Source: a virus (Duplodnaviria; Caudoviricetes). From it: a stretch of 64,000 nucleotides of DNA. Below are positions 14,223-64,000 of the stretch, one piece after another. The notes beneath the pieces were generated by a model. It did no database searches, was not told the origin of the DNA, and saw only the letters and a program-made list of their open reading frames with translations. Made by a program: the position numbers and the translations under genes. The DNA is taken from IMG/VR virus record IMGVR_UViG_3300006173_000003, positions 1 to 64,000 of that record. One strand, given 5' to 3'. The stretch's first letter is position 1; every line of letters starts with the position of its first letter.

Positions 14223-14392
14223 AGCTAATTATAGTTGGAGTTATATTTTTCTATTCCTGCTGTCCTTCCAGAGATCCGAAAACTGGAAAATTTTGGACAA
14301 GTGAGCATGTATGGAAGAGAATGGTAGCCAGAAACTTTAACCACTGTAAAATTTACTATGACCGATTTGATAACCCAATACCTTACAAGTAA
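14219..14392 (+). CDS. Small lipoprotein (57 aa, not in the ORF track)
   Basis: MKLIIVGVIFFYSCC; overlaps both neighbours (ATGA and TAATG). Confidence 0.6.
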   Translation: MKLIIVGVIFFYSCCPSRDPKTGKFWTSEHVWKRMVARNFNHCKIYYDRFDNPIPYK

Positions 14393-15036
14393 TGTGGACT
14401 AATTTCTTTTCTCGGATAGTTTTGATAAATCTTCGCAGCAGGCCGGATAGACTTATAGAAAGTTCATTGGAATTAAAACGGCACAAGATACCATTTGAAG
14501 TGGTCAATGGCATAAAGAACGAAAACGGGCAGCAAGGAATATCAGATACGTTGAGGGGGCTATTCCGGAACTCCCTTGATGCCGGACATCGTAATTTATT
14601 GGTATTCGAGGATGATGTCCAAATGGTAGTAGAACCAGAGGAATTTGAACGAGTAATGGATTTGGCCTTAATTGAACTTCCATATAACTATGATATGCTG
14701 TACCTGGGGGCTAATTTACCTAACCCCAGAAGAGTATCCGAATATTCCGCCCATTTGCTGAGAACAATTCGTGCTCTTGCTCTTCATGCTGTAGCCTATA
14801 GTCGCCGTGGAATGGAAGAAATACTTTCACTGGAACCACGGTTGCCTATTGACCTCCAAATAGCTGAGGAGATCAACACGGCAGGAGGTTCATTCGTAAC
14901 CTATCCCCTACTTTGTACTCAGAAAGAATCGTTCTCAGATATCGAAAAGAGACCTACAAACTATGCCTGCTTCATTGAAGACCGATACAAGGAAGTAGAA
15001 AAATATTTGGGATTATCTAAAAGTTCCTTACCTTAG
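14392..15036 (+). CDS. Glycosyltransferase family 25
   Basis: INLRSRPDR, LVFEDD, DMLYLG, ALHAVAYS, LCTQ. Confidence 0.85.
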   Translation: MWTNFFSRIVLINLRSRPDRLIESSLELKRHKIPFEVVNGIKNENGQQGISDTLRGLFRNSLDAGHRNLLVFEDDVQMVVEPEEFERVMDLALIELPYNYDMLYLGANLPNPRRVSEYSAHLLRTIRALALHAVAYSRRGMEEILSLEPRLPIDLQIAEEINTAGGSFVTYPLLCTQKESFSDIEKRPTNYACFIEDRYKEVEKYLGLSKSSLP

Positions 15037-15040
15037 CACT

Positions 15041-15167
15041 GCTTCAGAAAACCTCAATGTAACAAATTTATCATTTTTCTTTTTTAAGATAGAGAGTTAC
15101 CGCAGGTTGAATTCTTGATGTTTTACGACGTTAGGTTTTCTGAAGCCCCTGCGGTAACTCTTTTTTA
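15041..15167 (+). promoter_or_regulatory. Two interleaved perfect 14-bp inverted repeats ending in a U-tract (attenuator, pseudoknot or invertible element)
   Basis: A 15041-15054 pairs with A' 15133-15146; B 15093-15106 pairs with B' 15148-15161; T run follows; ATG at 15171. Confidence 0.7.
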
Positions 15168-15170
15168 TTT

Positions 15171-15863
15171 ATGAAACTATCTCTCGCCATAACTAACTTC
15201 AATAGGTATGATCTGCTGCTTAAATCCTTTGAGCAAATGGTGGATGATTCTAGGATTTCAGAAATAATAATTTACGACGATGCGAGTGACTGGGATGTTC
15301 AGGAGTCCCTAAGAGAATTAGTGAAGGGATTCCCCGACAAAGTAAAACTTTTCCTTGGAGTAAAAAATGTCGGCATGAGCCGAGCAAAAAGAAACGCCAT
15401 TTCGTTATGCGAAAATGAATTTGCGATTATCCTAGACTCAGACAACGTTATATCCCCGTCATATATCGATGCACTGGAAGGATTCTTCTGGGACGACGGA
15501 ACGATTATGATGCCGGAGATGGCGGCTCCTAATTTTGACTATCGGGCGTTCTCTGGCGTAACATTCGATTCAAGCAACGTGAACGAGTATTTGGATAGGC
15601 CGCTATTCGAAGCCCTACTAAATACGTCGAATTATGTAGTTCCTGTTTTGGAATATTTGAAAGTCTATCAGGAAGACAAAACAGTAAAAGAAACAGACAC
15701 AGTTCACTTCGCATACCATTGGCTGAGAAATGGATACCAGTTTAAGGTAATTGAAGGACTCCGGTATGATCATCTTGTACATCCTGATAGCGGCTGGTTA
15801 AAGAACGCTTCATACAACTCAGCAAGAGGAAAACAAACTATTGAACAAATACGGGCGCTATGA
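15171..15863 (+). CDS. Glycosyltransferase family 2 (GT-A)
   Basis: LAITNFNR, IIYDDAS, NVGMSRAKRNAI, IILDSDN. Confidence 0.85.
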   Translation: MKLSLAITNFNRYDLLLKSFEQMVDDSRISEIIIYDDASDWDVQESLRELVKGFPDKVKLFLGVKNVGMSRAKRNAISLCENEFAIILDSDNVISPSYIDALEGFFWDDGTIMMPEMAAPNFDYRAFSGVTFDSSNVNEYLDRPLFEALLNTSNYVVPVLEYLKVYQEDKTVKETDTVHFAYHWLRNGYQFKVIEGLRYDHLVHPDSGWLKNASYNSARGKQTIEQIRAL

Positions 15864-16612
15864 TCTACAACAGGCTCCTTGGCGGATTAGGCAATCAACT
15901 TTTCCAACACGCATGCGCGATTGGATTGAGTAAAAAATGGGGTATGGATTACTGCGCACCTTCGGAGTCTATTAATCCAAACGTGTGGCCCGCATATAAG
16001 CTCCCCGGATTGAACTACTGTAAGGAGGGTGTCGTTACTGCTGTATTTTATAAAGAACCTACCCATGCCTTTCACGAAATACCCTTTCACCCAAATATTA
16101 TCCTTGAAGGATATTGGCAGTCGTACAAGAGGTTCGACTTCTGTAGAGAAGAGGTTATGAAGGCTTTTGGATTCGATGACCTCGATTGCAACTACGGGAC
16201 CGTAGGGTTGCAAATAAGAAGGGGAGACTATTTAAAGTTTCCTCTACATCACCCCGTTGTTACGTTGGAATATATTCGAATGGCAGCAGAGAAGATAAAA
16301 GGGGATTACGAATTTTTGGTCTTTACTGACGACGAAGAATGGGCGAAAGAGAACATTACTTCTGAGTTGCTGGGGGATAGGTATTTTGAAATAATCGAAA
16401 AGGGAGATGCGCTGAATGATTTGACGTATCTGGCAATGTGCGAGAAGCATATAATTTCAAACTCCACGTACGGATGGTGGGGCGCGTGGTTAAGCAATAG
16501 CACGAATAAGCAAGTTGTAACCCCATCAGAGGATAATTGGTTTGGAGAAAGGAATAAGCATCTATCCGTGGCTGATCTTTTATTGCCTGAATGGGAACGA
16601 ATAAAATTTTAA
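15860..16612 (+). CDS. Alpha-1,2-fucosyltransferase, glycosyltransferase family 11
   Basis: GGLGNQLFQ, EGYWQS, QIRRGDY, VFTDD, IISNSTYGWWGAWL. Confidence 0.9.
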   Translation: MIYNRLLGGLGNQLFQHACAIGLSKKWGMDYCAPSESINPNVWPAYKLPGLNYCKEGVVTAVFYKEPTHAFHEIPFHPNIILEGYWQSYKRFDFCREEVMKAFGFDDLDCNYGTVGLQIRRGDYLKFPLHHPVVTLEYIRMAAEKIKGDYEFLVFTDDEEWAKENITSELLGDRYFEIIEKGDALNDLTYLAMCEKHIISNSTYGWWGAWLSNSTNKQVVTPSEDNWFGERNKHLSVADLLLPEWERIKF

Positions 16613-16614
16613 TC

Positions 16615-16836
16615 ATGCCGATAACAGAAGTGGAATGGAGGAAATATTCCGAAAAGCAATATCCTCTTGGGAAGATTTCACAAAAAAGGAAAATTGTTAG
16701 GTGTAGTAAGCCGGATACGGCTTGGTACAAGGATATGATTGGTCAGGTGGTTGACGTTCATTATTTCGTTACATTCGGAGCGTGGACAACGGACGGAAAA
16801 TATATTGATTACTATGATTTATCAAATCCATTGTAA
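16615..16836 (+). CDS. Hypothetical protein (SH3-like beta pattern)
   Basis: 73-aa ORF inside the glycan cluster. Confidence 0.5.
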   Translation: MPITEVEWRKYSEKQYPLGKISQKRKIVRCSKPDTAWYKDMIGQVVDVHYFVTFGAWTTDGKYIDYYDLSNPL

Positions 16837-17379
16837 ATGACACTTCAACAACTAGCGGATAAGTACGGGAGCGACAAAAGTGGAACTAATGGTCACGGGT
16901 ACATACAGTACTATGAAAAACACCTTCCGGCTGAATGCGACTCTCTGCTTGAAATTGGAATACTTAGAGGCGGAAGCATGAGGATGTGGAAGGAGTATCT
17001 GCCAAACACCCGGCTGTATGGCGCTGACCTGTTCATTGAACATCCAGAGCCAAAGATAGAAGGAGTAGAATGGTTTAAAGCTAATCAACTTGATCATGAG
17101 TTCCTTTACCACGTAAGGAACGACGTAAAGCCACAGGTGATTATTGAAGATTGCTCTCATAACTGCCGGGATCAAATCGTGACATTTTTTTCTTTGATAG
17201 GGTCGTGCGAACTATATGTACTCGAAGATGCCCACACGGCAGCGGAAGAGTTTTACAGGCAAGGATTGCCATTCGAAGCAACAATGCTGGGCATGATGAA
17301 GTCCGGAAGCTTCCCGTTCGAATTTGACCTTTATGATGATAAAATTGCGTTCATAAAAAATAAAGTAAAATGCTCTTAA
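16837..17379 (+). CDS. Class I SAM-dependent (sugar O-)methyltransferase
   Basis: KYGSDK..HGY...Y, LLEIGI..GGS.RMW, IIEDCSH, YVLED. Confidence 0.8.
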   Translation: MTLQQLADKYGSDKSGTNGHGYIQYYEKHLPAECDSLLEIGILRGGSMRMWKEYLPNTRLYGADLFIEHPEPKIEGVEWFKANQLDHEFLYHVRNDVKPQVIIEDCSHNCRDQIVTFFSLIGSCELYVLEDAHTAAEEFYRQGLPFEATMLGMMKSGSFPFEFDLYDDKIAFIKNKVKCS

Positions 17380-18002
17380 ACTTCACTGAAATATTAAAAA
17401 AGTATCAAATTAAACCAAAGGCTGTTATTGTTGTAGGCGGACATTGGGGGGAAGAACACAACGACTACTTGTCCAATGGAATTAGCCGGATGGTATACAT
17501 TGAACCATGCGCCAAGGCGTTTGCAGAATTGAAGCGCCGATTTCAGTTTGCCAGTAACGTGAAGTTGTTCAACCTTGCCTGCGGAGATGAAACTGGGCAA
17601 TCGATTATGTACACCGGAGACAATACTGTCAATCATGGGCAGAGCAATAGCTTGCTTAAACCGGCCAAACACAAAGAAATTCACCCAACGGTTTTGTTCA
17701 CAGATGAAGAAACCGTTGATGTTGATCTGCTGGACAACTTGGGATTGGCCAACAAGGGGTATGATTTATTGGTGATGGACGCTCAGGGATATGAAGGGTA
17801 TGTACTACGAGGTGGCAAGGAAACATTGAAACAAATAAACTGGGTCTATTCCGAGATCAATTTTGACAGCGTGTACGAAAATTGCACACAAGCCGAAGAA
17901 TTGGACGCCTTATTGTCTGACTTTGAAAGGGTAGAAACAGGAACAAAGGTCGGCGGCATGTGGTCGGATGCTTTTTATATTCGCAAATCCCTGCTTAAAT
18001 GA
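17370..18002 (+). CDS. FkbM-family methyltransferase
   Basis: VGGHWGEE, IEP, VDLLD, LVMDAQGYEGYVLRG, EIN. Confidence 0.9.
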   Translation: MLLNFTEILKKYQIKPKAVIVVGGHWGEEHNDYLSNGISRMVYIEPCAKAFAELKRRFQFASNVKLFNLACGDETGQSIMYTGDNTVNHGQSNSLLKPAKHKEIHPTVLFTDEETVDVDLLDNLGLANKGYDLLVMDAQGYEGYVLRGGKETLKQINWVYSEINFDSVYENCTQAEELDALLSDFERVETGTKVGGMWSDAFYIRKSLLK

Positions 18003-18841
18003 TACGAGTACCAGACGAATTTAGGCCAGTAGAGAAGCATCGGTATCCCGCCGACAACCTTTGTCCATTTGAAGAGTGGTATGCTCAAAATCATCCTCCA
18101 GATGTTAATGGAAGAGAGTATTTGGGGGTAATGTGGACGGGATATTATAAGAACCATAGCTACGGCAACGATAAGGCGGCTATCGAAAGGCTTCAAGGAT
18201 GGCTCGATTCCCTGTCGACGGATAAAAAGTACTACGCAGTGTGCCAATACGACAATGGCCCGCTGAATGACCTGTCTCATTTGGATGTGAAATTGTTTTG
18301 CATGTCTGGGGGGCCGGAAGGATTTATTCCCATACCGCTTGTTTGCTCTCCCCATCCCTATAAATTCCCAGAAGTTGAAAAGGATATCCTGTGTTCTTTT
18401 ATTGGTAGGTTGACGGACCCGATCAGAAACGAAATAGTAATGTGGGGGAATGGAAGAAAGGATTGTTACGTAACCGCCGCCCCCCATCCACTAGAAGCCT
18501 ATTGTAAAATTCTAGCAAGGTCTAAGTTTGTCTTAGCTCCGCGTGGGTTCGGTCCGTCCTCTTTTCGCGTTTGCGAGGCGTTGCAGTATGGAGCAATGCC
18601 CTTCTTGTTCGGGAATCATGGAGATGTTATATTCGAGACAAAGGTTCTTCTGTTTTTTCAAACCTATTCGGATTGGTATGATCCGGATCATCACCATGAT
18701 CTTGAAAAATATCTGACAGAGAAGCAGAAAGAAATTGACCGAAGCCATATAGGAGCAACATATAGCATGTTTTACACATTTGGGGGCGTCAGATCTTACA
18801 TCATTCACCAATTGACGTATGGAGATACATTGCATTCATGA
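17999..18841 (+). CDS. Exostosin-like glycosyltransferase (GT47)
   Basis: KDILCSFIG, SKFVLAPRGFGPSSFRVCEALQYGAMP. Confidence 0.85.
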   Translation: MIRVPDEFRPVEKHRYPADNLCPFEEWYAQNHPPDVNGREYLGVMWTGYYKNHSYGNDKAAIERLQGWLDSLSTDKKYYAVCQYDNGPLNDLSHLDVKLFCMSGGPEGFIPIPLVCSPHPYKFPEVEKDILCSFIGRLTDPIRNEIVMWGNGRKDCYVTAAPHPLEAYCKILARSKFVLAPRGFGPSSFRVCEALQYGAMPFLFGNHGDVIFETKVLLFFQTYSDWYDPDHHHDLEKYLTEKQKEIDRSHIGATYSMFYTFGGVRSYIIHQLTYGDTLHS

Positions 18842-19412
18842 TAAAAAAAGAGCGGATCGGTTCGATCTACTGCAAAAAGAGATAACTACCCAAGGATTAA
18901 CCGTCCGGTACTGGCCTGCTATAAAAGATCCCCTTAATAGATCGTTTGTAGGGATATCCCAAGCCCATAAGCAGATAGTAAGGTGGGCGGCAACAGAAGG
19001 ACTCCCGGAGGTCTGTATCATGGAGGATGACTGTTATTTCTTCGCACCAGGAGCATGGGATTACTACCTGAGCCAGAAGCCAGAAGACTTTGATCTTTAT
19101 CTGGGAGGGGTATTCCACGGGCTAAATGAGGACAATACAGCAACCGACTACTGTGGGAACACTCTATACATTGTTCATTCCCGATTCTACGCCACGTTTT
19201 TGGATACCAATGAGCTAAACCATCTTGATCGGGCGCTTGCCGGAAAGGGGCGTTATGTAGTCTGTGACCCGATGGTTGTAAGCCAGCATGGAGGCTTTTC
19301 GGACAATAAATTGCGCCACGATAGCTATGAAAGGTACTTGGTAGGCAAAAGATTGTTCGGCGGAGTGAAGTATGACCGCATAAACGTCGATAAATCAATA
19401 AAAAATCCGTAA
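18819..19412 (+). CDS. Glycosyltransferase family 25
   Basis: GISQAHKQI, CIMEDD, FDLYLGG, YIVH. Confidence 0.8.
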   Translation: MEIHCIHDKKRADRFDLLQKEITTQGLTVRYWPAIKDPLNRSFVGISQAHKQIVRWAATEGLPEVCIMEDDCYFFAPGAWDYYLSQKPEDFDLYLGGVFHGLNEDNTATDYCGNTLYIVHSRFYATFLDTNELNHLDRALAGKGRYVVCDPMVVSQHGGFSDNKLRHDSYERYLVGKRLFGGVKYDRINVDKSIKNP

Positions 19413-19426
19413 ATTAATCGGATAAC

Positions 19427-20230
19427 ATGCCCAATACTTTAATTGATCCAATTTTAAATGATGTGGTTTATAGCCTCCTTTACGGTGCATCATATGAAGA
19501 AAAAAGAGGTTTAAAGGGGAAATATCTTCGGGCAGCGATGAGCGGAGAGAAAGCTAAACGCTTTTGCGCTAACAGTACCAGAGAAGAAAAGGAGTATCTT
19601 TTAGCTCACTTTGGGATCAGGTTTTTCTATGTGTTTTCCAAAAATGGAGTTGGATTTGCAAAAATAAAGGGACTCTTAGCCCAATTTGATAATGGTAAAA
19701 GGGTTGCTGCACTAAAGGATATTGCCGAACAGGGTATTTTCGTAACATCAGATAAAGAGGTTGTTCGGGGGCTGGGGATTATGGCGCAGTCTATTCATCA
19801 TCATTCCTATTTCCTAAACCTAGAATTCGTCCGGCAGGGATACCACATACAGAAATGGAAGAAGCATAGTACTAATAATCAGGACATTGCTGCTAGGGAA
19901 GCGGACGAAAGTGCTAAATTAGTGGCCAGTACGTTATTAAGCGGCTGTATTACTATGGATTACGTCGAGGGACTGTCTGGTATCTCGCCTACGGCAATGA
20001 AGATATTGCTGCATCTTTATTCGTTAAGCCATACTTATGTCCCCGATCAGGTATTGTATGACAGATTTGCCGGAGCCTTCAATAAAACAAAGTATCGGTA
20101 CGCTATAAAAGCCTTATTGAAGGAAGACCTGATTATCCAACATGGCCCGAAGCTTAAGAGAGAGATTACTATCACTTCCGCAGGCGTGAAACACGTCAAT
20201 AATTTCATGGATTCTGCTATGAAAATTTGA
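19427..20230 (+). CDS. Probable transcription regulator with a C-terminal MarR-like winged helix
   Basis: GISPTAMKILLHLY...IKALLKEDLI...ITITSAG. Confidence 0.55.
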   Translation: MPNTLIDPILNDVVYSLLYGASYEEKRGLKGKYLRAAMSGEKAKRFCANSTREEKEYLLAHFGIRFFYVFSKNGVGFAKIKGLLAQFDNGKRVAALKDIAEQGIFVTSDKEVVRGLGIMAQSIHHHSYFLNLEFVRQGYHIQKWKKHSTNNQDIAAREADESAKLVASTLLSGCITMDYVEGLSGISPTAMKILLHLYSLSHTYVPDQVLYDRFAGAFNKTKYRYAIKALLKEDLIIQHGPKLKREITITSAGVKHVNNFMDSAMKI

Positions 20231-20273
20231 TATTTGTGATTCATGGAACGTATCGTGGAACAAAATGTAAGTT

Positions 20274-20450
20274 ATGCCAGCAAGATTCTTCAAAAAACCT
20301 CCAAAAACAACCTGCTCTAAATGCGGGAATCCGATTGATCGAAATGGCAGATATTGTAAATCCTGTCATAAAGAGTATATGCGAGCCCAAAGAAGGAAAC
20401 AGCGGGCAGAACTGGAAGAATTGAGAAATTTTAAAATGACACATGTATGA
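20274..20450 (+). CDS. Small double-CxxC Zn-ribbon protein (58 aa, not in the ORF track)
   Basis: MPARFFKKPPKTTCSKCGNPIDRNGRYCKSCHKEYMR...; ATGA overlap with 20447. The listed 20227-20424 ORF is a different frame. Confidence 0.65.
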   Translation: MPARFFKKPPKTTCSKCGNPIDRNGRYCKSCHKEYMRAQRRKQRAELEELRNFKMTHV

Positions 20451-21064
20451 GTCTGTTGGAATTTATCATAACGTTTATTGGATTGTGCCTTATATCTTCA
20501 TTTGCTATTTACGGATTCTACACTGTCAGTCGCGGAGAATGGCAACTGACGCCAGACGGAAAATATAAGAAAACAGGGATGATTTTCAAATATTGGAGCT
20601 TATTTTGGGAACAATATAGAAGGAGTCGAACTATAATTTATAGTGGCGATTCGTTGGAAAAAAAATATATTCTTTTGTGTAAGACGTATCCAGGAATCTC
20701 TGAAAATTTGAGACTAACTACGGGAGGGCTTCGCAATGTTAACAAACTGATTACTGGAGCACAGGTTAAATTAATTGAAGATTTATTACTTTGTAAAAGT
20801 CAATGGGACGAGGATGTTCTGATTTTAACCACTGAGGTTCCGGTTTATGACTGGCCTGAATGGCTTCAAAAACCTATATCGTCCTGCCCCCCCTGTATGA
20901 CATCGGTTTACGGAACACCTATCTGGCTTCTGTTTCTGAAACTCCAAAAAGACGCCTTTTCTTGGACAAACTACCCAATTACCGGGGAAATATCGTTTGG
21001 ATTGATTTTTTTATTAACTTTAGTGTGCATTGTGTCTTTTTTGCATAAACAGTTAAAATTCTGA
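20447..21064 (+). CDS. Membrane protein with CxxC (DUF1360-like)
   Basis: About three hydrophobic segments; WLQKPISSCPPCMTSVYG. Confidence 0.6.
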   Translation: MSLLEFIITFIGLCLISSFAIYGFYTVSRGEWQLTPDGKYKKTGMIFKYWSLFWEQYRRSRTIIYSGDSLEKKYILLCKTYPGISENLRLTTGGLRNVNKLITGAQVKLIEDLLLCKSQWDEDVLILTTEVPVYDWPEWLQKPISSCPPCMTSVYGTPIWLLFLKLQKDAFSWTNYPITGEISFGLIFLLTLVCIVSFLHKQLKF

Positions 21065-21069
21065 ATGGT

Positions 21070-21249
21070 ATGTCAACACCTTGTATCCCTTGCGGACAAA
21101 GCGCCGCCAACATGCAGGCCCCGCCACGTCAACAGCCGCAACCACCACAGCAGGCCCCGGCCCAAAGCGTAATCGCACCCAACAACGTCACTACAGTAGC
21201 CAATCCAAGGATGGCAAGGCCCCGTCACTTTTACAATGGAACGAAGTAA
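21070..21249 (+). CDS. Small CxxC, Pro/Gln-rich protein (59 aa, not in the ORF track)
   Basis: MSTPCIPCGQSAANMQAPPRQQPQPPQQAP...; fills the gap exactly. Confidence 0.6.
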   Translation: MSTPCIPCGQSAANMQAPPRQQPQPPQQAPAQSVIAPNNVTTVANPRMARPRHFYNGTK

Positions 21250-21924
21250 TTGGGCCAGCCAATCGACATAGTAGCTCAAAGGGCAATGGACTTGCACCTG
21301 GGAAATTTCAGATCGAACAGTGATTTTTTTGATCTGAGTGATTATGCCTACTATGTAGGCGCGGAAGTAGCCGATCTTTTCCGTCAGGAGTACATGCAAA
21401 AATACGGAGAGCTTCGGCAGGAAAAGAGCGATTCAATGGTAGAGTTCGATCCGACATGGTTAAACGAAAAAGAGTTGGATGTGGAGATAAAAGACGGTCG
21501 ATACTTTGCCAAACTGGATTTCGGTTTCATGAATTTTCCATATGATGCGCAGTCTACCGGCATACAGTCAGTAATTTCCATTACACCGAACTACGGGAAG
21601 GAATTGCAGCGCGTGACGCTCAATCAGGTTTGGCAACTACAATACATCCCAGCGACCAATGAAATATTTTTTCAGCCAGAGAAAACAAGGCTGAATATTT
21701 TCAAGTACGGAACGGCCAACACCAACAAGATAAAAGTTTTTTACATCCCGGCCATCAGTGAAGATATGGAAGTGCCAGATGGTCTTGTCGAGTTGGCAAT
21801 AACGAACACCATCAGTAAGATGAAGGGACTGCTGCAAGGAAATGTGGTGAAGAAGTCCATAGACGGCAACATCAACCGGGTCATGGAAACTGAAATTGAT
21901 AAAGATCAACTCAAACAACATTGA
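21250..21924 (+). CDS. Putative head-tail connector / ring protein
   Basis: 224 aa, TTG start, first gene of the tail/ejection block. Confidence 0.5.
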   Translation: MGQPIDIVAQRAMDLHLGNFRSNSDFFDLSDYAYYVGAEVADLFRQEYMQKYGELRQEKSDSMVEFDPTWLNEKELDVEIKDGRYFAKLDFGFMNFPYDAQSTGIQSVISITPNYGKELQRVTLNQVWQLQYIPATNEIFFQPEKTRLNIFKYGTANTNKIKVFYIPAISEDMEVPDGLVELAITNTISKMKGLLQGNVVKKSIDGNINRVMETEIDKDQLKQH

Positions 21925-23060
21925 TCGATACTGAATCCATAGCGAAGAATATAACTCTAGCCGATGGGCTGAATGAATATCTGGCCCTGCGTCAAATAGA
22001 CAAGCGGAAGTACTATCCGATGTACTTAATCTCTGCTAAGCAGACATGGAAGGAAATGTTCGAGGGGACTATTTATGTGATGACCTCTGTGTGGAAGACA
22101 GTAAAGGCCGGAGATCCGTATCCATATGTTGACGTTCCCAGGGATGCGCAGCGGATTTTTTCAGTAGGTATAGAAGATCATTGTGGCGATATAAAGACGC
22201 TGTACTATAACAATAGGATGAATATCATCCCTAAACCTACTGAAAAAAAATGCGGGTGTACTGATTGTGATTGTGGCGGGATGTGTGAAGAAGTCAATTC
22301 CACCATTCTAACTACGAAAGTCCTGTTCAATATTTCGGGGGTAGATTACGTGGAAAAAACGTACCTAAAATATTGTTCGAATGGGGATATGATCGAATAT
22401 AAGGAAACGCCTGTCAAAAAGTACAACGACTTTAAAGGGGATGGGGGGGATTTTAATAATGACTACGGGTCGGACTACTCTGGAGGAAGCTCTGCTTTCC
22501 CTAACTTCACTATCGTTACTAACACGACGCAAAGAAAGATTTGCAGCCTTCAAACGAAACCATGTGGATGCCCAGTTGACTCGTCGGAGAACGAACACAT
22601 TCTTTTGGAATCCTGCGGATGCTTTCTTCCCTTCTTTGGTCGTCATAGAAAACAACATTGCGATAAGTTTCTTGCAGACACAAACACTTCGGAATACGGC
22701 TCAGTAAAAATAAGTGAATGTGGGAGTAAGATTTATTTCCAGCCGGGACACAAAAACCACCACCACCACCATAGAGACCATAAAAGGATTCCAGATTTCC
22801 TTTTGGTCATATATCAGACAGGCGGGGAGCCAAAGAACATTACGGAACAGGTGATGATTCCAGACGTGGCCGCATATAAGAATTGCTTATGGACCGGAAT
22901 TGACTGGCAATCAAAACGGTTTAACAATAAATATCCGGCCAACGAAAAGCAGTTGGCCAAGTATCAATATAACGATGCGTCAAACGGTTTAGTAGGATAC
23001 CTTAACCCGTTAAACATGGCAGACCTTGCAGATATGCAGGATTTGCCCCATAAATGGTGA
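21921..23060 (+). CDS. Putative tail ring protein with Cys- and His-rich insertions
   Basis: 379 aa; CGCTDCDC, CGC repeats, HKNHHHHHRDH; position in the tail block. Confidence 0.5.
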   Translation: MIDTESIAKNITLADGLNEYLALRQIDKRKYYPMYLISAKQTWKEMFEGTIYVMTSVWKTVKAGDPYPYVDVPRDAQRIFSVGIEDHCGDIKTLYYNNRMNIIPKPTEKKCGCTDCDCGGMCEEVNSTILTTKVLFNISGVDYVEKTYLKYCSNGDMIEYKETPVKKYNDFKGDGGDFNNDYGSDYSGGSSAFPNFTIVTNTTQRKICSLQTKPCGCPVDSSENEHILLESCGCFLPFFGRHRKQHCDKFLADTNTSEYGSVKISECGSKIYFQPGHKNHHHHHRDHKRIPDFLLVIYQTGGEPKNITEQVMIPDVAAYKNCLWTGIDWQSKRFNNKYPANEKQLAKYQYNDASNGLVGYLNPLNMADLADMQDLPHKW

Positions 23061-45417: not shown

Positions 45418-45425
45418 ACGAAGTG

Positions 45426-45455
45426 TTTGATTTTTAACGAAATTAACTAAATTTG
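45426..45455 (+). promoter_or_regulatory. Promoter of the portal gene (divergent region)
   Basis: TTTG (45426)-N18-TAAATTTG (45448). Confidence 0.65.
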
Positions 45456-45472
45456 GATAAATTCCCACTATT

Positions 45473-53411: not shown

Positions 53412-53425
53412 AAATTAAATAGGAA

Positions 53426-55567: not shown

Positions 55568-55571
55568 TAAT

Positions 55572-56210
55572 ATGAATAGAAGGAAACATAATATTGGCGA
55601 TAAGTTTGGCAGGCTGACAATATCTAAAATTCTTCCTAACCGAATTGTGGAAGCAGAGTGCGAATGCGGCAAAGTGAAGGAGTATCATTTTAACAACATT
55701 ACCTCTGGGAAGACATCTTCTTGTGGTTGCTATAATTCAGAGCTTAATTTTAAGCATGGCGGATGCGCTCACCCGCTATACACTGTTTGGGAGGGAATAT
55801 GCCAGAGGTGTTATAGTAAAAATCACCAAAACTATAAAAACTATGGAGGGAAGGGGGTTACTATGTGTAATGAATGGAAAGAAGATTTCGGGTCGTTTAA
55901 AAAATGGGCATTGGATAATGGATGGAAGAAGGGATTGAAGGTGGATAAAGATATTAAGGCCCCCAAAACAGGTCCAAAAATATACTCACCAGATCATTGT
56001 TCTATAATAACTCATCAAGAGAATTTAAGAAATAAGGTAGACAATAAAATAATAGAATACAACGGCGTTTCTTTGTGTTTAACCGAATGGTCTGAAGTAT
56101 TGGGAATAAAATACTGTTGTTTGAGAGCTAGAATAGATAGGGGCTGGGACACAGAGCGGGCTTTCACAAAACAAAATTTTACTCATAATCAAAAAAGAAA
56201 GGTTGCGTAA
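55572..56210 (+). mobile_element. Free-standing HNH-type homing endonuclease-like gene
   Basis: KFGRLTI, CECG, TSSCGC, QRCY...YGGKGV.MC.EW, YSPDHC, WSEVLGI; more AT-rich than its flanks. Confidence 0.75.
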
Positions 56211-56212
56211 AA

Positions 56213-56470
56213 ATGGCTACAGGATTTACGATAGAAAAAGTTGACTATTCTAATATTCCTTCGGGGGTAATAACGTGGACTTTCGAATTTAAATTATTCA
56301 GCGCGACCTCGTATACGCTGATAAGCAATTCGGCTCTTGTGAACACGGATGGAACGCTGTTGTCTCCGCTTCCTGTAACTGGATTAACAGCCGGGCAGTT
56401 GTATTACATTCGGGGATCAGCGAATTGTACTAGTCCGGTCGAAACGTTTTTGCAAATGGTTCAAACCTAA
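56213..56470 (+). CDS. Small FN3/Ig-like structural protein
   Basis: VTGLTAGQLYYIR, an FN3-like strand motif. Confidence 0.55.
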   Translation: MATGFTIEKVDYSNIPSGVITWTFEFKLFSATSYTLISNSALVNTDGTLLSPLPVTGLTAGQLYYIRGSANCTSPVETFLQMVQT

Positions 56471-56476
56471 TATATT

Positions 56477-57544: not shown

Positions 57545-57546
57545 TT

Positions 57547-58326
57547 ATGATTGACGTATACGACTTATATCAGAGCTTTTGCAGTACATACAATTTGTAC
57601 TTAGGCGGATGGTTTCGACCTAACACCGATTTTTTGCAAAAATGCAATGATATAAGTAAGGAGTTGTGGGTAAAGTGGACGGAAGAAGCAGAGAAATCTC
57701 AGGAAGCAAAAGATAATCTTTTGCCATTTCTTGTTTCTAAGAATATCATAGTATCCAATAAGGGACCGTATGGAACTTTTCCAATCCCAAAAGATGAAGA
57801 GAAGCCATATGGAAGGTTTTCGGCAGCTAGGATCATTGTTTCGGGAAAACATTGTGTTCCTTGCAAAGAGGTAGACGGAGGCAGGTGTTCTAATGGTGAT
57901 TTTACCAGCTCGGAACAATTGGCCGAAGATTATTACAATACAATTGAGCAAACAGATGTTGATCTTGTCGATAATCAGAAATGGGGAGCTTGTAATTCTC
58001 ACTTGACTAAAAAACCTTCTCTTAAAAAGCCAAAGATGAGGCAGATAGACGATGGATTTCAGGTTGCTCCAAGGGAGGTTAGCGTTATAGTATTGGATTA
58101 TTACAGGCCACCAAAAGAGGCAACGTTTGTGTATGATAAGAGTCCGGGTAATGAACAAACTGGGGCTGGGGATATGATAATCTATGATCAGAAAAATAGC
58201 CAACCATTAGAATGGCCTTTTAATATAAGAGAAGAGTTTTTGAATCGTTTGGGACAGGCTTATGGAACTTTTACAAAGGATCAGTTTCTTAGCCAATTTT
58301 CAGCACAACAAAAAGCAGCAAGCTAA
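57547..58326 (+). CDS. Putative tail ring/tubular protein (start at ATG 57547, not 57367)
   Basis: MIDVYDLY...; VLDYYRPPKEA.F.Y...L.W pattern of ring proteins. Confidence 0.55.
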   Translation: MIDVYDLYQSFCSTYNLYLGGWFRPNTDFLQKCNDISKELWVKWTEEAEKSQEAKDNLLPFLVSKNIIVSNKGPYGTFPIPKDEEKPYGRFSAARIIVSGKHCVPCKEVDGGRCSNGDFTSSEQLAEDYYNTIEQTDVDLVDNQKWGACNSHLTKKPSLKKPKMRQIDDGFQVAPREVSVIVLDYYRPPKEATFVYDKSPGNEQTGAGDMIIYDQKNSQPLEWPFNIREEFLNRLGQAYGTFTKDQFLSQFSAQQKAAS

Positions 58327-59087
58327 TGCCTAGTCAAGATTTTACCACATTGCAGCAATTGTTAAACTATACTAATACGTACTTCGTTACCAATGGGGTT
58401 AATTCCATCACCGGAGACGAAGGGAATAATATATTGAATGGGTTCGGAAAGTTTATTCAGTCGTACACAATGAATAACGGGTTGGCCGGAATATCTTCTA
58501 GTAGCGGCGTCGTTCCTTTGTCTAAGCCTGTAACTATATTTTCAGTTGCTCCGACTTCGTTTAATTGGACCGACAATGTTCAACAAGAGTATTATATCGT
58601 AAACGCCACTGGTGTTGCCATAAATGCGACATCGGGATATTCCTTTGTGGATGCATATGGGACAACGCAGACATCCATTGCGGCTAGGGATTCGGTACAT
58701 ATTGCTAAGGCGACGAATGGGACATGGTATAGAATAAACAACGTTTCCGGGTCTGCATCTGGCGGATTGCCTCCGATGACTGGTAATGCAGGAAAAGGTC
58801 TGTTCACCGATGGAACAAGCGCGTTTTGGGGAGATAATGTTCTCCAGATACCAGCAGGAGACGCAAATTATACCGATGCTACAACATGGGTAAATGGAAG
58901 TAGCTATAATCTGGTGCTTCCGAGTCCTCATTTCTTGCTGTTTTGGAACGAGACCAACAGATTCTTGCTAAGAAATATAAGTCCAGTCGAGTACGGATAT
59001 GTAACAAATGGGTTTAAAGTTTTTGTTCCGGGATTTGACGGATCAAATTCAAATGTATTTTTATTATTCAAAGGAGCAACTTCGTAA
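58326..59087 (+). CDS. Tail fibre anchor / collar protein
   Basis: FVTNGVNSITG..N.IL N-terminus; PMTGNAGKGLFTDGTSAFW fibre motif. Confidence 0.6.
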   Translation: MPSQDFTTLQQLLNYTNTYFVTNGVNSITGDEGNNILNGFGKFIQSYTMNNGLAGISSSSGVVPLSKPVTIFSVAPTSFNWTDNVQQEYYIVNATGVAINATSGYSFVDAYGTTQTSIAARDSVHIAKATNGTWYRINNVSGSASGGLPPMTGNAGKGLFTDGTSAFWGDNVLQIPAGDANYTDATTWVNGSSYNLVLPSPHFLLFWNETNRFLLRNISPVEYGYVTNGFKVFVPGFDGSNSNVFLLFKGATS

Positions 59088-59089
59088 GC

Positions 59090-62000
59090 ATGAAAAAAAT
59101 ATTATTCATAGTAGGTCTTCTGATCGGTTTTCAGGTTGCTTTTTCGCAATCCAGCCCTACCTTTTTGCCTCCAAGGTCATCTGCTACAACTACGGTTCAG
59201 GATTCCAGACTTAGAGCGTTGCTGACATTTTATTATCCACATACGCATGGATTAACGTTAAACGGAGGGTTGGATACTTTGGGAGCCGTTATATACGAAG
59301 ACAGCAGTGGGCACGTCTGGTATAGAGACACTATTCCTGCTGGGGGGCATAGATGGAGAATGATGTTGAGTTTTGGAGATCCAACAGGGGGAGTATCTTC
59401 TTTCAATACAAGAACCGGAGCCGTAACGCTTACGTCTGGTGACGTGATTACAGCGCTTACTTATACTCCAATAAATCCCAATGGAACATCGTCTCAGTAC
59501 ATAGCAGGAGATGGATCAAAAGTTACCTTCCCGACTATACCAGAGCAAATAAATATTACTGATGCTGGTCTCTTTGTTCATTCTGGAAGCTATCCAAATT
59601 ATACGTTTACCGGGAATACTCCTACGCAGCAACAGGTTTTTACTCAGGGATCTACCCTTAATCAAAATAACTTCTGGGTAACAGGAGCGAATGTTTTAGG
59701 AATGACCGGGACGGCAGCTTTCGGATTGCCTACGGGAAGCACATCGCAACGCCCATCGTCTGCCGGAGTAGGATATTTCAGATACAATACCGATAGCGCT
59801 TCAACAGAAACATATAATGGAAGTCAGTGGATTAAAACGGGTACAGGAACGGCCATAACAGGGGTTACAAGTTTCAATACAAGGACGGGTGCTGTTACTT
59901 TGAACTCCTCTGATGTTACAACCGCATTGGCTTTTACGCCATATAATTCCACCAATCCGGCTGGCTATATTTCTAATATAACTGGAAAAATAATTAATGG
60001 AGCCAATATAGTCATAACCGGAAGCGGAACCGGTGTTGATCCATATGTAATCATCGGAACTGGTGGTGGGGGAGGTGGGGGGAATACCAATTCAAATATT
60101 GGATCGGGGTATAGGTTTGCGGTTCCCAACACCAACAGTATAAAAACTTTATTCTGTTCAGGATGTACGTTGGATAGCACCACGAATGCCAATGCTCTTA
60201 CATTAACGGTAACTGGGGGTAGTGGAATTACCCAATTAACAGGGGATGGAACCGCTGGGCCAGGATCGGGAAGCCAGGCATTTACTTTAACGACCGTCAA
60301 TAGTAATGTAGGAACTTTTGGAAGTGCATCATCGGTTCCTGTTTTTGTCGTCAATGGAAAGGGTCTTGTGACCGGCGTAACGAATACATCAATTCAGATA
60401 ACTGAATCTCAGGTAACGAATTTAACAACAGATTTGGCTGGCAAGCAACCAACTGGAAATTATATAACTGGGATTACTGGAGATGTTGTCGCCACTGGCC
60501 CCGGATCGGTAGCCTCTACAATTCAAGCAAACGCGGTAACTACAGGAAAAATAAATAATAACGCTGTTACCTATGCAAAATTTCAAGCCTCTTCTCAAGC
60601 TGCTTTATTGGGGACAAATGCTGCCGGAAATTTTGGAGAAATAACGTTGGGGACTGGATTGTCTTTTAGCGGCTCAGTTTTAAATGCAACAGGGGGAGGG
60701 TCTCAGACATTAACGTATACTCAGCTTGCTCTCAATAACACACTGTCTATTAGTGGGGGTAATACCCAGACATTTCTTGTAGCTACCCACGCTTTGGCAG
60801 GGTTAATGGATTCTGCATCAAAAGCCGTTGTAGACAGCTTGCGCCTTAGAACTTATACTTTTCCTTCTGGCAGCGGATTGACGGCAGGAGGAGGATTCTC
60901 TCCATTATTCACCAATACGGTAACTGGGTCTACTCTTAATTTTGTTGCCTCCAATGCTGCTGCTAATTCTGCTTTTGGAAATTTTACTGGATCACCAGCG
61001 CCGGCAGCATTTGGGAAACTTCCCCTTGCAGCAATGGCTACAGGAACAGCCAATACTCTAATAGGATATGATGGGTCTGGTAATCCTTCGGGAATAACAG
61101 TGGGCTCCGGATTGTCGCTGGTTAGCGGTACATTAAGCTCTACAGCAGGAGGAGGTAGTGTTACAAGCGTAGGACTCGCATTGCCCGCTAGTTTATTTGC
61201 TGTTTCTGGTTCCCCCGTCACCGGTGCGGGAACTTTAACCGGTTCATTCAATACTCAAAACGCAGGATTCGTTTTAGTGAGCGATTCGGTAAATAATGGT
61301 CAAGTGCCTACCATGCGTCATCTTGTGGTTAAAGACCTTCCAGTATTTAGCCCGTGGCCCGCAGAGGCTCCAATGGGAACCATATACAGTAAATCAGCAT
61401 GGTCATTGCCGGTCACAGATTTTATTCCCGGACCAATAGCTCAGCTAACATATGCAATCAGCACAGAAGGTTATTTAAATGTTACAGGTCCATCCGCAGT
61501 AACGTTTAACAACTATGCTAGAGTGTTACAGCAAAGACCGACCCAGCTACCCAGATTTACGGAGACTGTCGTTTTTAAAATGCTGACCACTCCTGCCGCT
61601 GGAACGGTAGGATTTGGAATAGGCATTAAACAAAACAATGGAGCCATTGGAGATTTCACGGCATATGTCAATACGACAAATAGCGGATCTTCTGGCTTTC
61701 TTACCATCGTTCGTTCAGACGGTAGCGTTACTTATCAGAGTGGGTCCAGTTCAAATACTGTACACTTGAATGATGTCATGCAATTAAAGGTTGTGTATGC
61801 CGACTCCGTTGTAACGGCTTTTTTGACTAATATAACTACTGGTATTACGTCTACTCCATTAGTATGGACAAATACCATCCCAAGTGCTGTTAGTCCTCTT
61901 TTTACGGATTGTAGTTTTTCTTTTACACCATTTGGGCCAGCCACATACCAAATCCAATCCTATACTATTACCTCTGAAACCATTAGGAATGCAAATATGA

Positions 62001-64000
62001 TTTTCATTGGGGACTCAAAGACCCAAGGATTTAAGGCTAATTTTTTCAATGGTAGATTCGGGTGGCAAATGGGACAGTCTTTCCCGTCTGCTGTAATTTG
62101 GGCTGGAGGTTCCAATAAAACTACTGATGTCCTTCTGCAAATGGACGAATTGTCCCAATTGAACGGAGCCAATATTTTTATGAGTCTTGGATCGAATGAT
62201 ATTCGGGGAGGAGCTACAGTGACAGCAACAATGATTAACTATAACAGAATAGTTAATATGCTCCGCGCCTATGGTGCCAACGTATATCACATGGTATTCC
62301 CAGAAGACTCTACGTCTACTGGAGTTGGATTAACAGCGCTGAAGAATGCAATACTAGCAACATACCCTACAACATATATAGACACATGGGACACGCTTTC
62401 TACAGCAGGAAATAATATTTTAAGAGCCGCTTACCAAGGAGATGCCGTACATCCAAATCAGGCCGGTAATGATGCCATAGTCCGAGCAATTAATGCCAGT
62501 GGATTTGGTAAAGTAATTGCTACAAATAGGAAATCGGCCTATAGAATCACTGATGGTAATATTAAATTCAACGGAGACAGTTTATTCTTATTCCCCATTG
62601 ACAAAAACACAAATTATGTAAACCACTGGACAAGCAATGGTAGTTTTACAACTGGATTATTGCAGGACAATGGAATTGTATCCGGAGCCTCTGCCTCTCC
62701 ATTGGCCCCAGTAGCCAACACCATATTTAATGTTAATGGAGTGCTGGGTATTCAGGGAACAAGTGGTGGAATTTTGTTTTCAGGTAGAGACAACGCAGAT
62801 CAAACAATAGGAGAGGCGGCTATTTTTTGCTCAAATTATGCTATTCGGTATTTTGCCAATGGAGTCCAGACATTCTCTGTAGATTCCGCAGGAAGAGCAG
62901 CGATAGGCAATGTGGCTGTAGGCAATGGAGTAAATGCGTTCTTGTCTATAAGCCCTGGTCTTGCCGCTAGACCCCCTCTTAGATTTACTGTTAATGGGTC
63001 GGTGCTAACATCAACCCCACAGGCAGGCGCATTAGAGGTATTAGTTGATAGCCTTTATTTTACAGGGAATAATGGTACAAGGAACAAAATATGGCCACAA
63101 TCCGCAAGTGGAGGTAATCCATTTGCAGACAACACCGCATTGGTAAAGAATAATGCAGACAACACAAAATTGCTAATCTTAAGCGCTGCATCCATTTCCA
63201 CAGCAACCACAAGGACGGCAACCTTCCCAGATGCAAATATCACTGTAGCAGATAAATTAAGCCCTTTAAGCCAATTCGCTTCTACCACATCTGCTCAATT
63301 ACTTGGAGTCATTTCAGACGAAACAGGGACCGGATCATTGGTATTTGGGACATCTCCAACTATTGCTACACCCCTCTTCACTGGATTAACAAGTTCAGGA
63401 GCCAATGACTCAGTTCTTACTGTTGATCCTACCACTGGGCAATTACATAGAAGATCTGGGGCTTTCAATTTATTCTTCGCAAACGGATTGACAGCAGCAG
63501 GAGGGGATAGTGCATATTGGGGAGGAACTTTAAATCAGCCCACTACCATTTCTGGAGCCGGATTCCCTGTATCGTTGGGGACTTCGGGAAGCAACTTAGG
63601 AGGTCTATCTATTACAGGTGGAAAGTATAACAGTGCGCAAGGGTCTCAAATATTAGGTGTGGCCTCGACCATAAATAATGCTATAACAGCAGGTAGCGGG
63701 AACGTTACCAATTTTTCTGCATACGCTTTCTTGGCCCCCACGATTACTAGTACGAATACTTCGGTTACTTATACAACTCCATCCACTTTATATATTGACA
63801 ATGCCCCAACGCTAAGCACAAATTCTTCTGCAACTGGGAGGGTGTATGCATTAAATGTAAACGCAGGAATAAATCACTTTGGATTAGGGCCTGCTAATGT
63901 TACTGCTCTTTTTGATGGTTGTGTATTTGTAGGAAATGCAACTATAACCGGAAACACATTGTTAGGCATTGGACCTTCAACTGCTACTCAAACAGCGGTT
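59090..64000 (+). CDS. Very large tail-fibre/spike-like protein with an N-terminal Sec signal peptide and an SGNH hydrolase domain (at least 1637 aa, runs off the window, not in the ORF track)
   Basis: Frame open by hand translation from ATG 59090 to 64000; MKKILFIVGLLIGFQVAFS-Q; fibre motifs SFNTRTGAVTL x2, LPTGSTSQRP, SDETGTGSLVFGTSPT; GDS/GSND/DAVHP at about 61990-62495. Confidence 0.85.
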   Translation, partial: MKKILFIVGLLIGFQVAFSQSSPTFLPPRSSATTTVQDSRLRALLTFYYPHTHGLTLNGGLDTLGAVIYEDSSGHVWYRDTIPAGGHRWRMMLSFGDPTGGVSSFNTRTGAVTLTSGDVITALTYTPINPNGTSSQYIAGDGSKVTFPTIPEQINITDAGLFVHSGSYPNYTFTGNTPTQQQVFTQGSTLNQNNFWVTGANVLGMTGTAAFGLPTGSTSQRPSSAGVGYFRYNTDSASTETYNGSQWIKTGTGTAITGVTSFNTRTGAVTLNSSDVTTALAFTPYNSTNPAGYISNITGKIINGANIVITGSGTGVDPYVIIGTGGGGGGGNTNSNIGSGYRFAVPNTNSIKTLFCSGCTLDSTTNANALTLTVTGGSGITQLTGDGTAGPGSGSQAFTLTTVNSNVGTFGSASSVPVFVVNGKGLVTGVTNTSIQITESQVTNLTTDLAGKQPTGNYITGITGDVVATGPGSVASTIQANAVTTGKINNNAVTYAKFQASSQAALLGTNAAGNFGEITLGTGLSFSGSVLNATGGGSQTLTYTQLALNNTLSISGGNTQTFLVATHALAGLMDSASKAVVDSLRLRTYTFPSGSGLTAGGGFSPLFTNTVTGSTLNFVASNAAANSAFGNFTGSPAPAAFGKLPLAAMATGTANTLIGYDGSGNPSGITVGSGLSLVSGTLSSTAGGGSVTSVGLALPASLFAVSGSPVTGAGTLTGSFNTQNAGFVLVSDSVNNGQVPTMRHLVVKDLPVFSPWPAEAPMGTIYSKSAWSLPVTDFIPGPIAQLTYAISTEGYLNVTGPSAVTFNNYARVLQQRPTQLPRFTETVVFKMLTTPAAGTVGFGIGIKQNNGAIGDFTAYVNTTNSGSSGFLTIVRSDGSVTYQSGSSSNTVHLNDVMQLKVVYADSVVTAFLTNITTGITSTPLVWTNTIPSAVSPLFTDCSFSFTPFGPATYQIQSYTITSETIRNANMIFIGDSKTQGFKANFFNGRFGWQMGQSFPSAVIWAGGSNKTTDVLLQMDELSQLNGANIFMSLGSNDIRGGATVTATMINYNRIVNMLRAYGANVYHMVFPEDSTSTGVGLTALKNAILATYPTTYIDTWDTLSTAGNNILRAAYQGDAVHPNQAGNDAIVRAINASGFGKVIATNRKSAYRITDGNIKFNGDSLFLFPIDKNTNYVNHWTSNGSFTTGLLQDNGIVSGASASPLAPVANTIFNVNGVLGIQGTSGGILFSGRDNADQTIGEAAIFCSNYAIRYFANGVQTFSVDSAGRAAIGNVAVGNGVNAFLSISPGLAARPPLRFTVNGSVLTSTPQAGALEVLVDSLYFTGNNGTRNKIWPQSASGGNPFADNTALVKNNADNTKLLILSAASISTATTRTATFPDANITVADKLSPLSQFASTTSAQLLGVISDETGTGSLVFGTSPTIATPLFTGLTSSGANDSVLTVDPTTGQLHRRSGAFNLFFANGLTAAGGDSAYWGGTLNQPTTISGAGFPVSLGTSGSNLGGLSITGGKYNSAQGSQILGVASTINNAITAGSGNVTNFSAYAFLAPTITSTNTSVTYTTPSTLYIDNAPTLSTNSSATGRVYALNVNAGINHFGLGPANVTALFDGCVFVGNATITGNTLLGIGPSTATQTAV

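Follow-up and report, generated by a model that had tools for sequence, protein, structure and literature searches.

Predicted Sec export and O-glycosylation sequon enrichment of fibre-like proteins in a phage of probable Bacteroidota hosts, and an apparently separate glycan island

Particles of tailed phages are thought to be built wholly in the cytoplasm. Here we analyzed the first 64 kb (64,000 nucleotides; the window) of the linear, 73,438-bp virus record IMGVR_UViG_3300006173_000003 of IMG/VR (CheckV completeness ~68%), in which a late gene encodes a giant fibre-like protein with a predicted Sec leader and an excess of O-glycosylation sequons, while an island of glycosyltransferase (GT) and methyltransferase (MT) genes lies beside the primase gene. 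The closest described counterparts are substrates of the general O-glycosylation system of Bacteroidota, where D-(S/T)-(A/I/L/V/M/T) is a phylum-wide motif and glycosylation is found only on non-cytoplasmic proteins (PMC12871550, PMC11632369). The candidates described here resemble them in their Sec or lipoprotein leaders, their predicted periplasm-facing location and their enrichment in this motif; however, the known substrates are bacterial, whereas these are phage-encoded and include the fibre-like protein of the late operon. Phages are not mentioned in a review of Bacteroidota O-glycosylation (PMC12871550), and full-text literature searches returned no paper on leader-bearing tail fibres of Bacteroidota phages or on O-glycosylation of phage proteins there. 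A Gln at position +1 is the Bacteroidetes Q-rule for substrates of signal peptidase I (SPI) (PMC5837995, PMC10653852). In Porphyromonas gingivalis prophages, phage proteins with Bacteroidota leaders exposing Gln have likewise been read as an adaptation to host secretion, but these are five small proteins with no function assigned, and fibres, depolymerases and O-glycosylation were not considered (PMC10367356).

Similar architectures have been described elsewhere. The trimeric MAT fibres of Bdellovibrio bacteriovorus combine a phage-fibre-like mosaic build with a signal peptide, a conserved domain behind it and swappable distal modules (PMC10769870). They differ in being bacterial and displayed on the predator's own surface, and the likeness noted here is one of layout. 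We know of no link between MATs and glycosylation sequons. In the Cellulophaga phages phi19:1 (gp101-gp104) and phi19:3 (KC821607.1, KC821608.1), consecutive leader-bearing proteins, one of them of the pectate-lyase type, are encoded between tail and lysis genes, as here; by contrast, that block has no detectable sequence relation to the fibre-like protein, no sequon excess and no GT island, and its proteins are much smaller. Pantoea stewartii WceF is reported to be a tailspike-fold enzyme that modifies the exopolysaccharide of the bacterium itself (PMC7949094), an example of such folds working outside the virion; its gene is bacterial and not from a phage.

The gene of the fibre-like protein and its surroundings comprise the following features:
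59090-64396 (contig coordinates; 396 bases beyond the window end), plus strand: fibre-like mosaic protein of 1768 amino acids (aa) with a conserved N-domain, repeats, an SGNH esterase and a conserved C-end
59090-59146, plus strand: predicted Sec/SPI signal peptide of 19 residues, with a basic n-region, a hydrophobic core and the end ...VAFS/Q (the slash marks the predicted cut), which places Gln at +1
62003-62473, plus strand: SGNH/GDSL esterase domain, residues 972-1128 (PF13472, E 4.8e-14)
58326-59087, plus strand: late gene of the same operon, ending 2 bases before the fibre ATG, in the same order in the syntenic locus L004

Leader calls combined the Q-rule with a heuristic based on hydrophobicity and charge, sequons were defined as D-[ST]-[AILVMT], and expected numbers were obtained from composition-preserving shuffles. 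The fibre-like protein contains 15 sequons against 6.0 expected (p ~0.002), and no enrichment was found in the shuffles for control motifs (E- or N-first, or reversed). The Sec-exported, sequon-rich fibre proposed in the initial annotation is borne out at the level of sequence. Two of the sequons, D62-T-L and D80-T-V, sit on invariant columns of the N-domain. The 74 homologues are mosaic proteins of 1000-2900 aa, mostly on phage-sized contigs, in which a domain of ~240 residues directly behind the leader is conserved; the rest is mosaic, and the modules swapped there are of the esterase (GDSL, SASA), pectate-lyase, K1-lyase-C, S74-chaperone and collagen types.

The leader is conserved in 46 of the 74 homologues, with [A/S/G]-Q at the cleavage site in 44 of these 46, and the sequon excess tracked the leader. 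Leader-bearing homologues hold 696 sequons against 279 expected, while the 28 without a leader hold 167 against 187, with a median enrichment of 2.7x compared to 0.68x (Mann-Whitney p 1.6e-8). The same pairing was observed across seven IMG/VR phage records reached via the primase or the fibre, which also served for the co-occurrence test described below: leader proteins of at least 150 aa total 148 sequons against 53 expected, and all other proteins 233 against 267. Each of the seven records encodes at least one leader-bearing protein of at least 580 aa. Leader and sequons are also paired in the loci L004, L005, L009, L012 and L013, and small exported proteins near related islands provide further examples (8 sequons against 0.9 expected, 7 against 1.0). 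Since selection for a motif of periplasmic modification implies that the proteins really reach the periplasm, the leader and sequon signals support each other. That the leader-bearing proteins are true Sec substrates fitted to the general O-glycosylation of the host, as the initial annotation had supposed, is well supported by these sequence patterns.

The phage encodes further predicted exported proteins besides the fibre-like protein:
336-656, minus strand: lipoprotein of 106 aa with the lipobox ...LISC; 4 sequons against 0.3 expected (p <= 0.001)
4586-4999, minus strand: exported protein of 137 aa, leader then Q; 2 sequons against 0.5
5712-5861, minus strand: lipoprotein-like open reading frame (ORF) of 49 aa; 1 sequon
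66505-68409 of the contig: leader-bearing beta-helix protein; 7 sequons against 2.2
68790-69461 of the contig: DUF6808 spanin-like protein of 223 aa in the lysis cassette; 8 sequons against 0.7

Most exported proteins of the phage other than the fibre are enriched ~3-11x in sequons, and its leaderless proteins (~47) contain 44 against 44.9 expected, none of them being individually significant. The sequon-bearing lipoproteins that had been predicted were also recovered, most of them outside the range to which the proposed system had been assigned, with 4, 1 and 0 sequons for the ORFs at 336-656, 5712-5861 and, next to the GT genes, 14219-14392, respectively. Downstream of the fibre gene on the contig, the late genes encode a 142-aa membrane-anchored protein, an RCC1/PKD protein and the beta-helix protein. 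The DUF6808 protein has an N-terminal membrane anchor and a beta-strand-like C-terminal end finishing in Phe, and its counterpart in L004 carries 7 sequons against 0.7 expected; its sequence makes it a possible single-chain spanin with heavy O-glycosylation. Export through the type IX secretion system was also considered for the fibre, RCC1/PKD and beta-helix proteins, and a reading of them as its cargo was rejected, as no CTD family, the C-terminal sorting domain, was present among their Pfam matches.

Taken together, we lean, with some reservation, towards a reading of two separate modules, one of host-matured exported proteins and one consisting of an independent glycan island. In the first module, the fibre, 142-aa, RCC1/PKD, beta-helix and spanin-like proteins and the early lipoproteins would enter the periplasm via Sec leaders or lipoboxes, where signal peptidase would trim them and the general O-glycosylation system of the host would modify their D-(S/T)-(A/I/L/V/M/T) sites. 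Fibres and depolymerases would then wait in the periplasm and, we infer, dock on particles built in the cytoplasm once holin lesions merge the two compartments and before the outer membrane is breached; some of the exported proteins may instead, or also, act as free enzymes that modify envelope glycans. In the second module, the soluble enzymes of the island would build a methylated, fucose-containing glycan, and an RNA terminator/antiterminator would gate entry into the part of the island that runs from the GT2 gene to its end.

With regard to the place of the fibre-like protein in the virion, its gene directly adjoins the late operon and is succeeded by more genes of fibre type, after which the lysis genes begin. 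As in tail fibres, a distal-tail position in the late operon goes together with a conserved N-terminal part and a module-swapping distal part; tail fibres are, however, manufactured in the cytoplasm without an export signal, and the predicted cleavable leader is a departure from the known kind. AlphaFold modelling of the N-domain (18 sequences) was unusable, with a predicted local distance difference test (pLDDT) score of 36.6, only the leader helix being confident (pLDDT 69-84). The nearest ESM Atlas clusters of the fibre are all of viral tail or fibre types, with scores below 0.9 that make them a lead only. No match was obtained in a PDB sequence search with the fibre, and tblastn against cultured phages returned a single 39-residue motif for the fibre and nothing for the beta-helix protein.

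A strong indication that such proteins may belong to virions comes from the Cellulophaga analogues. In phi19:1, gp101-gp104 (513, 777, 303 and 446 aa) all have classic leaders and are encoded between the distal tail and the lysis genes, the same genome position as that of the fibre, and GenBank annotates them as 'structural protein, experimental MS/MS proteomics'. The pectate-lyase-type gp102 is present at full length, including its leader, in the podoviruses phi19:3 and phi13:2 and in the siphovirus phi10:1, and in the myovirus phi4:1 the same type of enzyme domain is carried by a leaderless 962-aa fibre. Leaders are not universal at the fibre position in Bacteroidota phages, as Flavobacterium phage hattifnatt9-1 has none there and the phi4:1 fibre lacks one. 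By analogy, attachment of the exported fibres to virions is plausible. The four-gene leader block is common to the siphovirus phi19:1 (Assiduviridae) and the podovirus phi19:3 (Pachyviridae), phages of the same Cellulophaga host strain, with 97.8% identity for the pectate-lyase member, and by sequence it appears to be a host-specific cassette that moves between tail types.

The glycan island adjoins the replication genes (primase), away from the structural operon and the fibre genes, and comprises the following features:
14219-14392, plus strand: lipoprotein-like ORF of 57 aa directly 5' of the GT cluster, an N-terminal hydrophobic stretch then Cys-Cys; 0 sequons
14392-15036, plus strand: GT25-like protein, a weak match (PF01755, E 7e-4, score 20 bits, cut-off 24); GT25 genes are found in the islands of relatives
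15041-15161, plus strand: interleaved inverted repeats A-B-A'-B' and a T-run, a terminator/antiterminator-like RNA element before GT2
15171-15863, plus strand: GT2 glycosyltransferase (PF00535, E 1.4e-13)
15860-16612, plus strand: short GT11 of the alpha-1,2-fucosyltransferase type (PF01531, E 1.2e-24; phrog_2644, full length)
16837-17379, plus strand: methyltransferase (phrog_21658, E 4e-20); some islands of relatives have Methyltransf_24 at about this position
17370-18002, plus strand: FkbM-family methyltransferase (PF05050, E 1.9e-11)
17999-18841, plus strand: GT47/exostosin-like glycosyltransferase (PF03016, E 2.4e-6, below the cut-off here and above it in relatives)
18819-19412, plus strand: 197-aa protein, last gene of the island, without Pfam or PHROG match

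The GT/MT cluster noted in the initial annotation is therefore real, with GT2, GT11 and FkbM identified by Pfam and the other methyltransferase by PHROGs, and none of its proteins has a leader or a membrane segment, all being soluble. The position homologous to 17999-18841 is recorded as Exostosin_GT47 in L009, L010 and L066, and the L009 gene at the place of the 197-aa protein has a faint GT25 match. GT11 homologues number more than 4000, many on phage-sized contigs. Neither an initiating transferase nor a flippase nor a ligase was present among the Pfam and PHROG matches of the island, the enzymes of which must consequently draw on a host pathway or modify an acceptor directly. An LFG-type outer O-glycan locus combines a wzx flippase and a conserved terminal GT pair with variable GTs (PMC12871550); no flippase or membrane protein was found in 14392-19412 among the Pfam and PHROG matches or in the screen for membrane segments. 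Judging from the enzyme families, the product of the island would be a methylated, fucose-containing glycan on some acceptor. Directly upstream of the 57-aa ORF and the island, 13803-14222 encodes a 139-aa protein with HTH_38 and HTH_23 matches, which could, by sequence, be a regulator of the island.

A switch-like element had been reported ahead of the cluster. The RNA element itself is real, but it sits after the first GT gene and not ahead of the whole cluster. Its two inverted repeats, each a perfect match over 14 bp, lie at 15041/15133 and 15093/15148; a T-run and the GT2 ATG come next. Pairing of B with B', with the U-run behind it, yields a strong terminator (-37.9 kcal/mol, z = -4.85), and the alternative A:A' fold (-31.8 kcal/mol) is complete before B', the 3' terminator arm, is transcribed. 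As only 1 nt separates A' from B', the two helices are mutually exclusive, and the element thus shows a GC-rich hairpin with a U-run together with a competing upstream pairing, as attenuators of this kind do. The same architecture, in unrelated sequence, precedes the GT2 gene of L013, which favours a conserved RNA switch. DNA inversion by the interleaved repeats is less likely, since spacings of just 78 and 41 bp separate the repeats and none of the proteins scanned is a recombinase, the neighbouring 139-aa protein matching HTH_38 only; a metagenome scan for the RNA element found no copy in which orientation could be checked. A trigger in which ribosomes occlude arm A was rejected because it is not conserved: the upstream ORF in L013 ends 36 nt before the arm.

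Close relatives, whose primases are 77-84% identical to that of this phage, all have a glycan island just after the primase, the content and even the orientation of which differ:
L012: GT9 (heptosyltransferase-like)/DUF5672 and methyltransferases
L013: GT2, epimerase, GT11, GT1-like protein and three methyltransferases
L014: set on the opposite strand, 14935-21881

A GDP-mannose-dehydratase/epimerase-type gene is added in the islands of three relatives, and the core of GT2, GT11, methyltransferase, FkbM and GT47 is present too in phages whose replication genes differ. A single 489-aa protein of L011 (10837-12306) combines FkbM and GT47 by fusion, and NUMOD4/HNH homing endonucleases are inserted beside GT11 in relatives' islands (L066:310-828; L009:10775-11431). 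Further, full-length homologues of the short GT11 occur in ~100 cyanophage records, the hosts of which are outside Bacteroidota. Those of the cyanomyoviruses P-SSM2, S-SRM01 and ACG-2014f share the short form and ~34-36% identity over the full length, and one has an adjacent annotated methyltransferase; they differ in that their hosts belong to another phylum, without the Bacteroidota O-glycosylation system.

The initial annotation had tied the GT cluster to the fibre in one system. Leader-bearing, sequon-rich large proteins are encoded in all seven phage records, whereas an island of GT2, GT11 and FkbM is present in only two, and so the traits largely fail to co-occur in these records, an outcome that the initial annotation had itself named as a refutation. 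Among the IMG/VR records, GT2, GT11 and FkbM were found together only in G007 and in this phage; G004 and G008 have no match to the GT and methyltransferase families searched (GT2, GT25, the GT11 of the window and FkbM), and in G006 and G010 the only match is a single weak GT2. Sequon ratios range from 1.9x to 4.1x across the records and are unrelated to the presence of the island. Nothing connects the island to the export module, and a link between the two is not supported. Because relatives have sequon-rich exported proteins without an island and GT11 occurs in cyanophages, the island appears from these comparisons to be a swap-prone, portable cassette, neither needed for nor specific to the export-and-sequon trait. 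A glycan specified by the phage is permitted by the data but unsupported, and camouflage, switchable binding and exclusion of competitors are speculation.

Several observations count against the two-module reading. The leader calls rest on the heuristic and the Q-rule, not on SignalP, and the RCC1/PKD protein is not enriched (3 sequons against 2.0 expected). The leader proteins of Cellulophaga phages show no sequon excess (4 against 12.9 summed), so that export and sequon enrichment are separable. Moreover, the phi19:1 cassette is ~98% identical in a siphovirus and a podovirus, and this near-identity across tail types is easier to reconcile with free enzymes, or with a generic mode of attachment, than with an anchor specific to one tail. 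Detection by mass spectrometry (MS) could reflect co-purification of exported proteins, and we know of no route that would bring a periplasmic part onto a tailed phage. Lastly, with a contig that is ~68% complete, missing genes could alter the picture.

Regarding the exported proteins, other readings were weighed against the same evidence. A more far-reaching version, for which we would claim only a tentative standing, is that a large group of Bacteroidota phages builds a virion part outside the cytoplasm, with fibres that are Sec-exported, pyroglutamate-trimmed, host-O-glycosylated and docked after holin action and, in its strongest form, with the GT/MT island rewriting the outer glycan on them. 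Similarly possible, although not favoured, is that the leader-bearing fibre-like proteins are exported envelope enzymes or adhesins instead of virion parts, which strip or deacetylate capsule, lipopolysaccharide (LPS) or exopolysaccharide for release, block re-adsorption or exclude other phages, and which are held by the N-domain as in Bdellovibrio MAT fibres. Export takes the proteins away from the site of particle assembly, the SGNH, SASA and lyase modules suit receptor destruction, the order of leader, conserved domain and mosaic distal part is exactly the MAT layout (PMC10769870), and a near-identical Cellulophaga cassette occurs in phages of different tail types. This has to be set against the detection of the Cellulophaga counterparts by MS in purified virions according to the GenBank notes, the location of the genes within the late structural operon, and the scarcity of other receptor-binding candidates in the phage, where the only one is a 197-aa short-fibre-like protein. 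Since the leaders were called by a heuristic, the N-terminal hydrophobic stretches might also fail to work as signal peptides, with a chance effect of composition in beta-rich fibres behind the sequon excess. This is very improbable: leaderless homologues of like architecture have only 0.68x the expected sequons, the leader sequences vary and yet their charge, hydrophobic core and +1 Q are kept in 44 of 46, and unrelated small exported proteins show the same excess.

As for the island, the independent product of the two-module reading competes with several proposals about its acceptor. Virus-encoded soluble GTs and methyltransferases decorate particles in mycobacteriophages and as the capsid glycans of chloroviruses, where their targets are capsid or tail-tube proteins, modified within the cytoplasm, and where their genes are found among the structural ones. 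The set of GT47-like protein, fucosyltransferase and FkbM methyltransferase resembles the chlorovirus machinery, the enzymes are soluble, no lipid-carrier genes were found (Pfam, PHROG) and cassettes of the same families are widespread on phage-sized contigs; direct cytoplasmic glycosylation of the phage's own virion proteins is nevertheless unlikely, given that the island adjoins the primase gene outside the structural operon and that Gly/Ser-rich acceptor tails are missing from the C-termini of the 26 late proteins inspected as candidate capsid and tail proteins. The link drawn in the initial annotation, in which phage enzymes rebuild the undecaprenyl-linked outer O-glycan of the host in the cytoplasm and the host flippase and transfer step place it on the fibre and lipoproteins, has more specific points in its favour and is still less probable. 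An island limited to soluble GTs and methyltransferases has to rely on a pathway of the host or act on an acceptor directly, the outer O-glycan is made by soluble GTs on undecaprenyl phosphate and is species-specific (PMC12871550), and O-methylated fucoses can abound on Bacteroidota O-glycans (PMC11632369), matching GT11 and the methyltransferases; the GDP-mannose-dehydratase/epimerase-type gene of three relatives and the variation in island content between close relatives, like that of a surface-glycan locus, agree with it. It conflicts with the lack of co-occurrence (sequon-rich fibres without the searched families in G004 and G008, and with a weak GT2 only in G006 and G010), with an enrichment ratio unrelated to the island, with the cyanomyovirus GT11 homologues, one of which has a methyltransferase neighbour, and with a location beside replication genes and not fibre genes. 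That same location could suggest that the island hypermodifies phage DNA with sugars, post-replicatively on hydroxymethylated bases, as LPS-related phage GTs decorate 5-hydroxymethylcytosine with mono- to trisaccharides including heptose (bioRxiv 10.1101/2023.12.21.572611) and one relative's island has a GT9 heptosyltransferase-like gene. We rate this lowest among the proposals for the island, as no TET/JBP protein, C5-methyltransferase or thymidylate-synthase-type hydroxymethylase (PF12851, PF00145, PF00303) was found in the 73-kb record, which is ~68% complete, these families are listed for no called gene in six related island loci of 20-22 kb, and the combination of a fucosyltransferase with several O-methyltransferases departs from the reported pattern. 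Remodelling of other envelope glycans by the island enzymes is a further alternative.

If the two-module reading is true, exported, host-glycosylated recognition proteins would add an extracytoplasmic, lysis-coupled step to phage assembly, and the O-glycosylation system of the host would become a determinant of phage infectivity, stability and antigenicity. Cultured Cellulophaga phages with existing virion proteomics allow direct testing. For genomics, a Q-rule leader combined with sequon excess would also be a simple means of recognizing Bacteroidota hosts and phage proteins exposed to the envelope. The glycan island is another instance of a cassette widespread among phages.

The gene content of the window is mostly unannotatable beyond the following features:
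10933-12816: primase/helicase
23054-23647: short-fibre-like protein, 197 aa
36093-38318: large terminase
55572-56210: HNH endonuclease (phrog_374, E 8e-51)

Genes lie on the plus strand nearly throughout the window, in which no tRNA genes were detected. Primase homologues form more than 100 clusters at 65-84% identity on contigs of 60-90 kb, which indicates an abundant lineage; a search of IMG/VR for relatives with the large terminase found none, and the primase was used as the query instead. Indirect sequence clues point to a host in Bacteroidota, probably in Chitinophagaceae: one primase homologue is on a contig labelled as a Ferruginibacter metagenome-assembled genome, GT11 homologues carry the names Bacteroidota and Taibaiella, and the phage proteins have Q-rule leaders. 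The nearest cultured phages (28-34% identity) infect Tenacibaculum, Flavobacterium and Cellulophaga and include the Riemerella-named vB_RanS_PJN03. Megablast of 20 kb of the window against cultured phages gave no match, and no host genome or CRISPR match was found for the phage.

Some further features of the window are recorded here. The region 26012-33274 encodes a 2420-aa protein without family match that has a repeated N-terminal ...NNPFVLGA... motif; its L005 counterpart (2621 aa) has a His_Phos_1 match, and the same two genes, of 192 and 424 aa, come next, ahead of a leader-bearing fibre. The HNH endonuclease gene is an insert among tail genes, the syntenic locus L004 having unrelated small genes there. 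The sole late-region stretch without a clear plus-strand gene has an uncertain coding assignment (44572-45468 on the minus strand or 44651-45450 on the plus strand), the 298-aa minus-strand ORF at 44572-45468 giving a marginal Cpn10/GroES match (E 0.009). Finally, 51900-52622 and 52634-53338 encode adjacent apparent paralogues of ~235-240 aa that share a C-terminal ...TWT.SAD..TL... motif, and the product of the latter carries 3 sequons against 0.9 expected, though it is leaderless.

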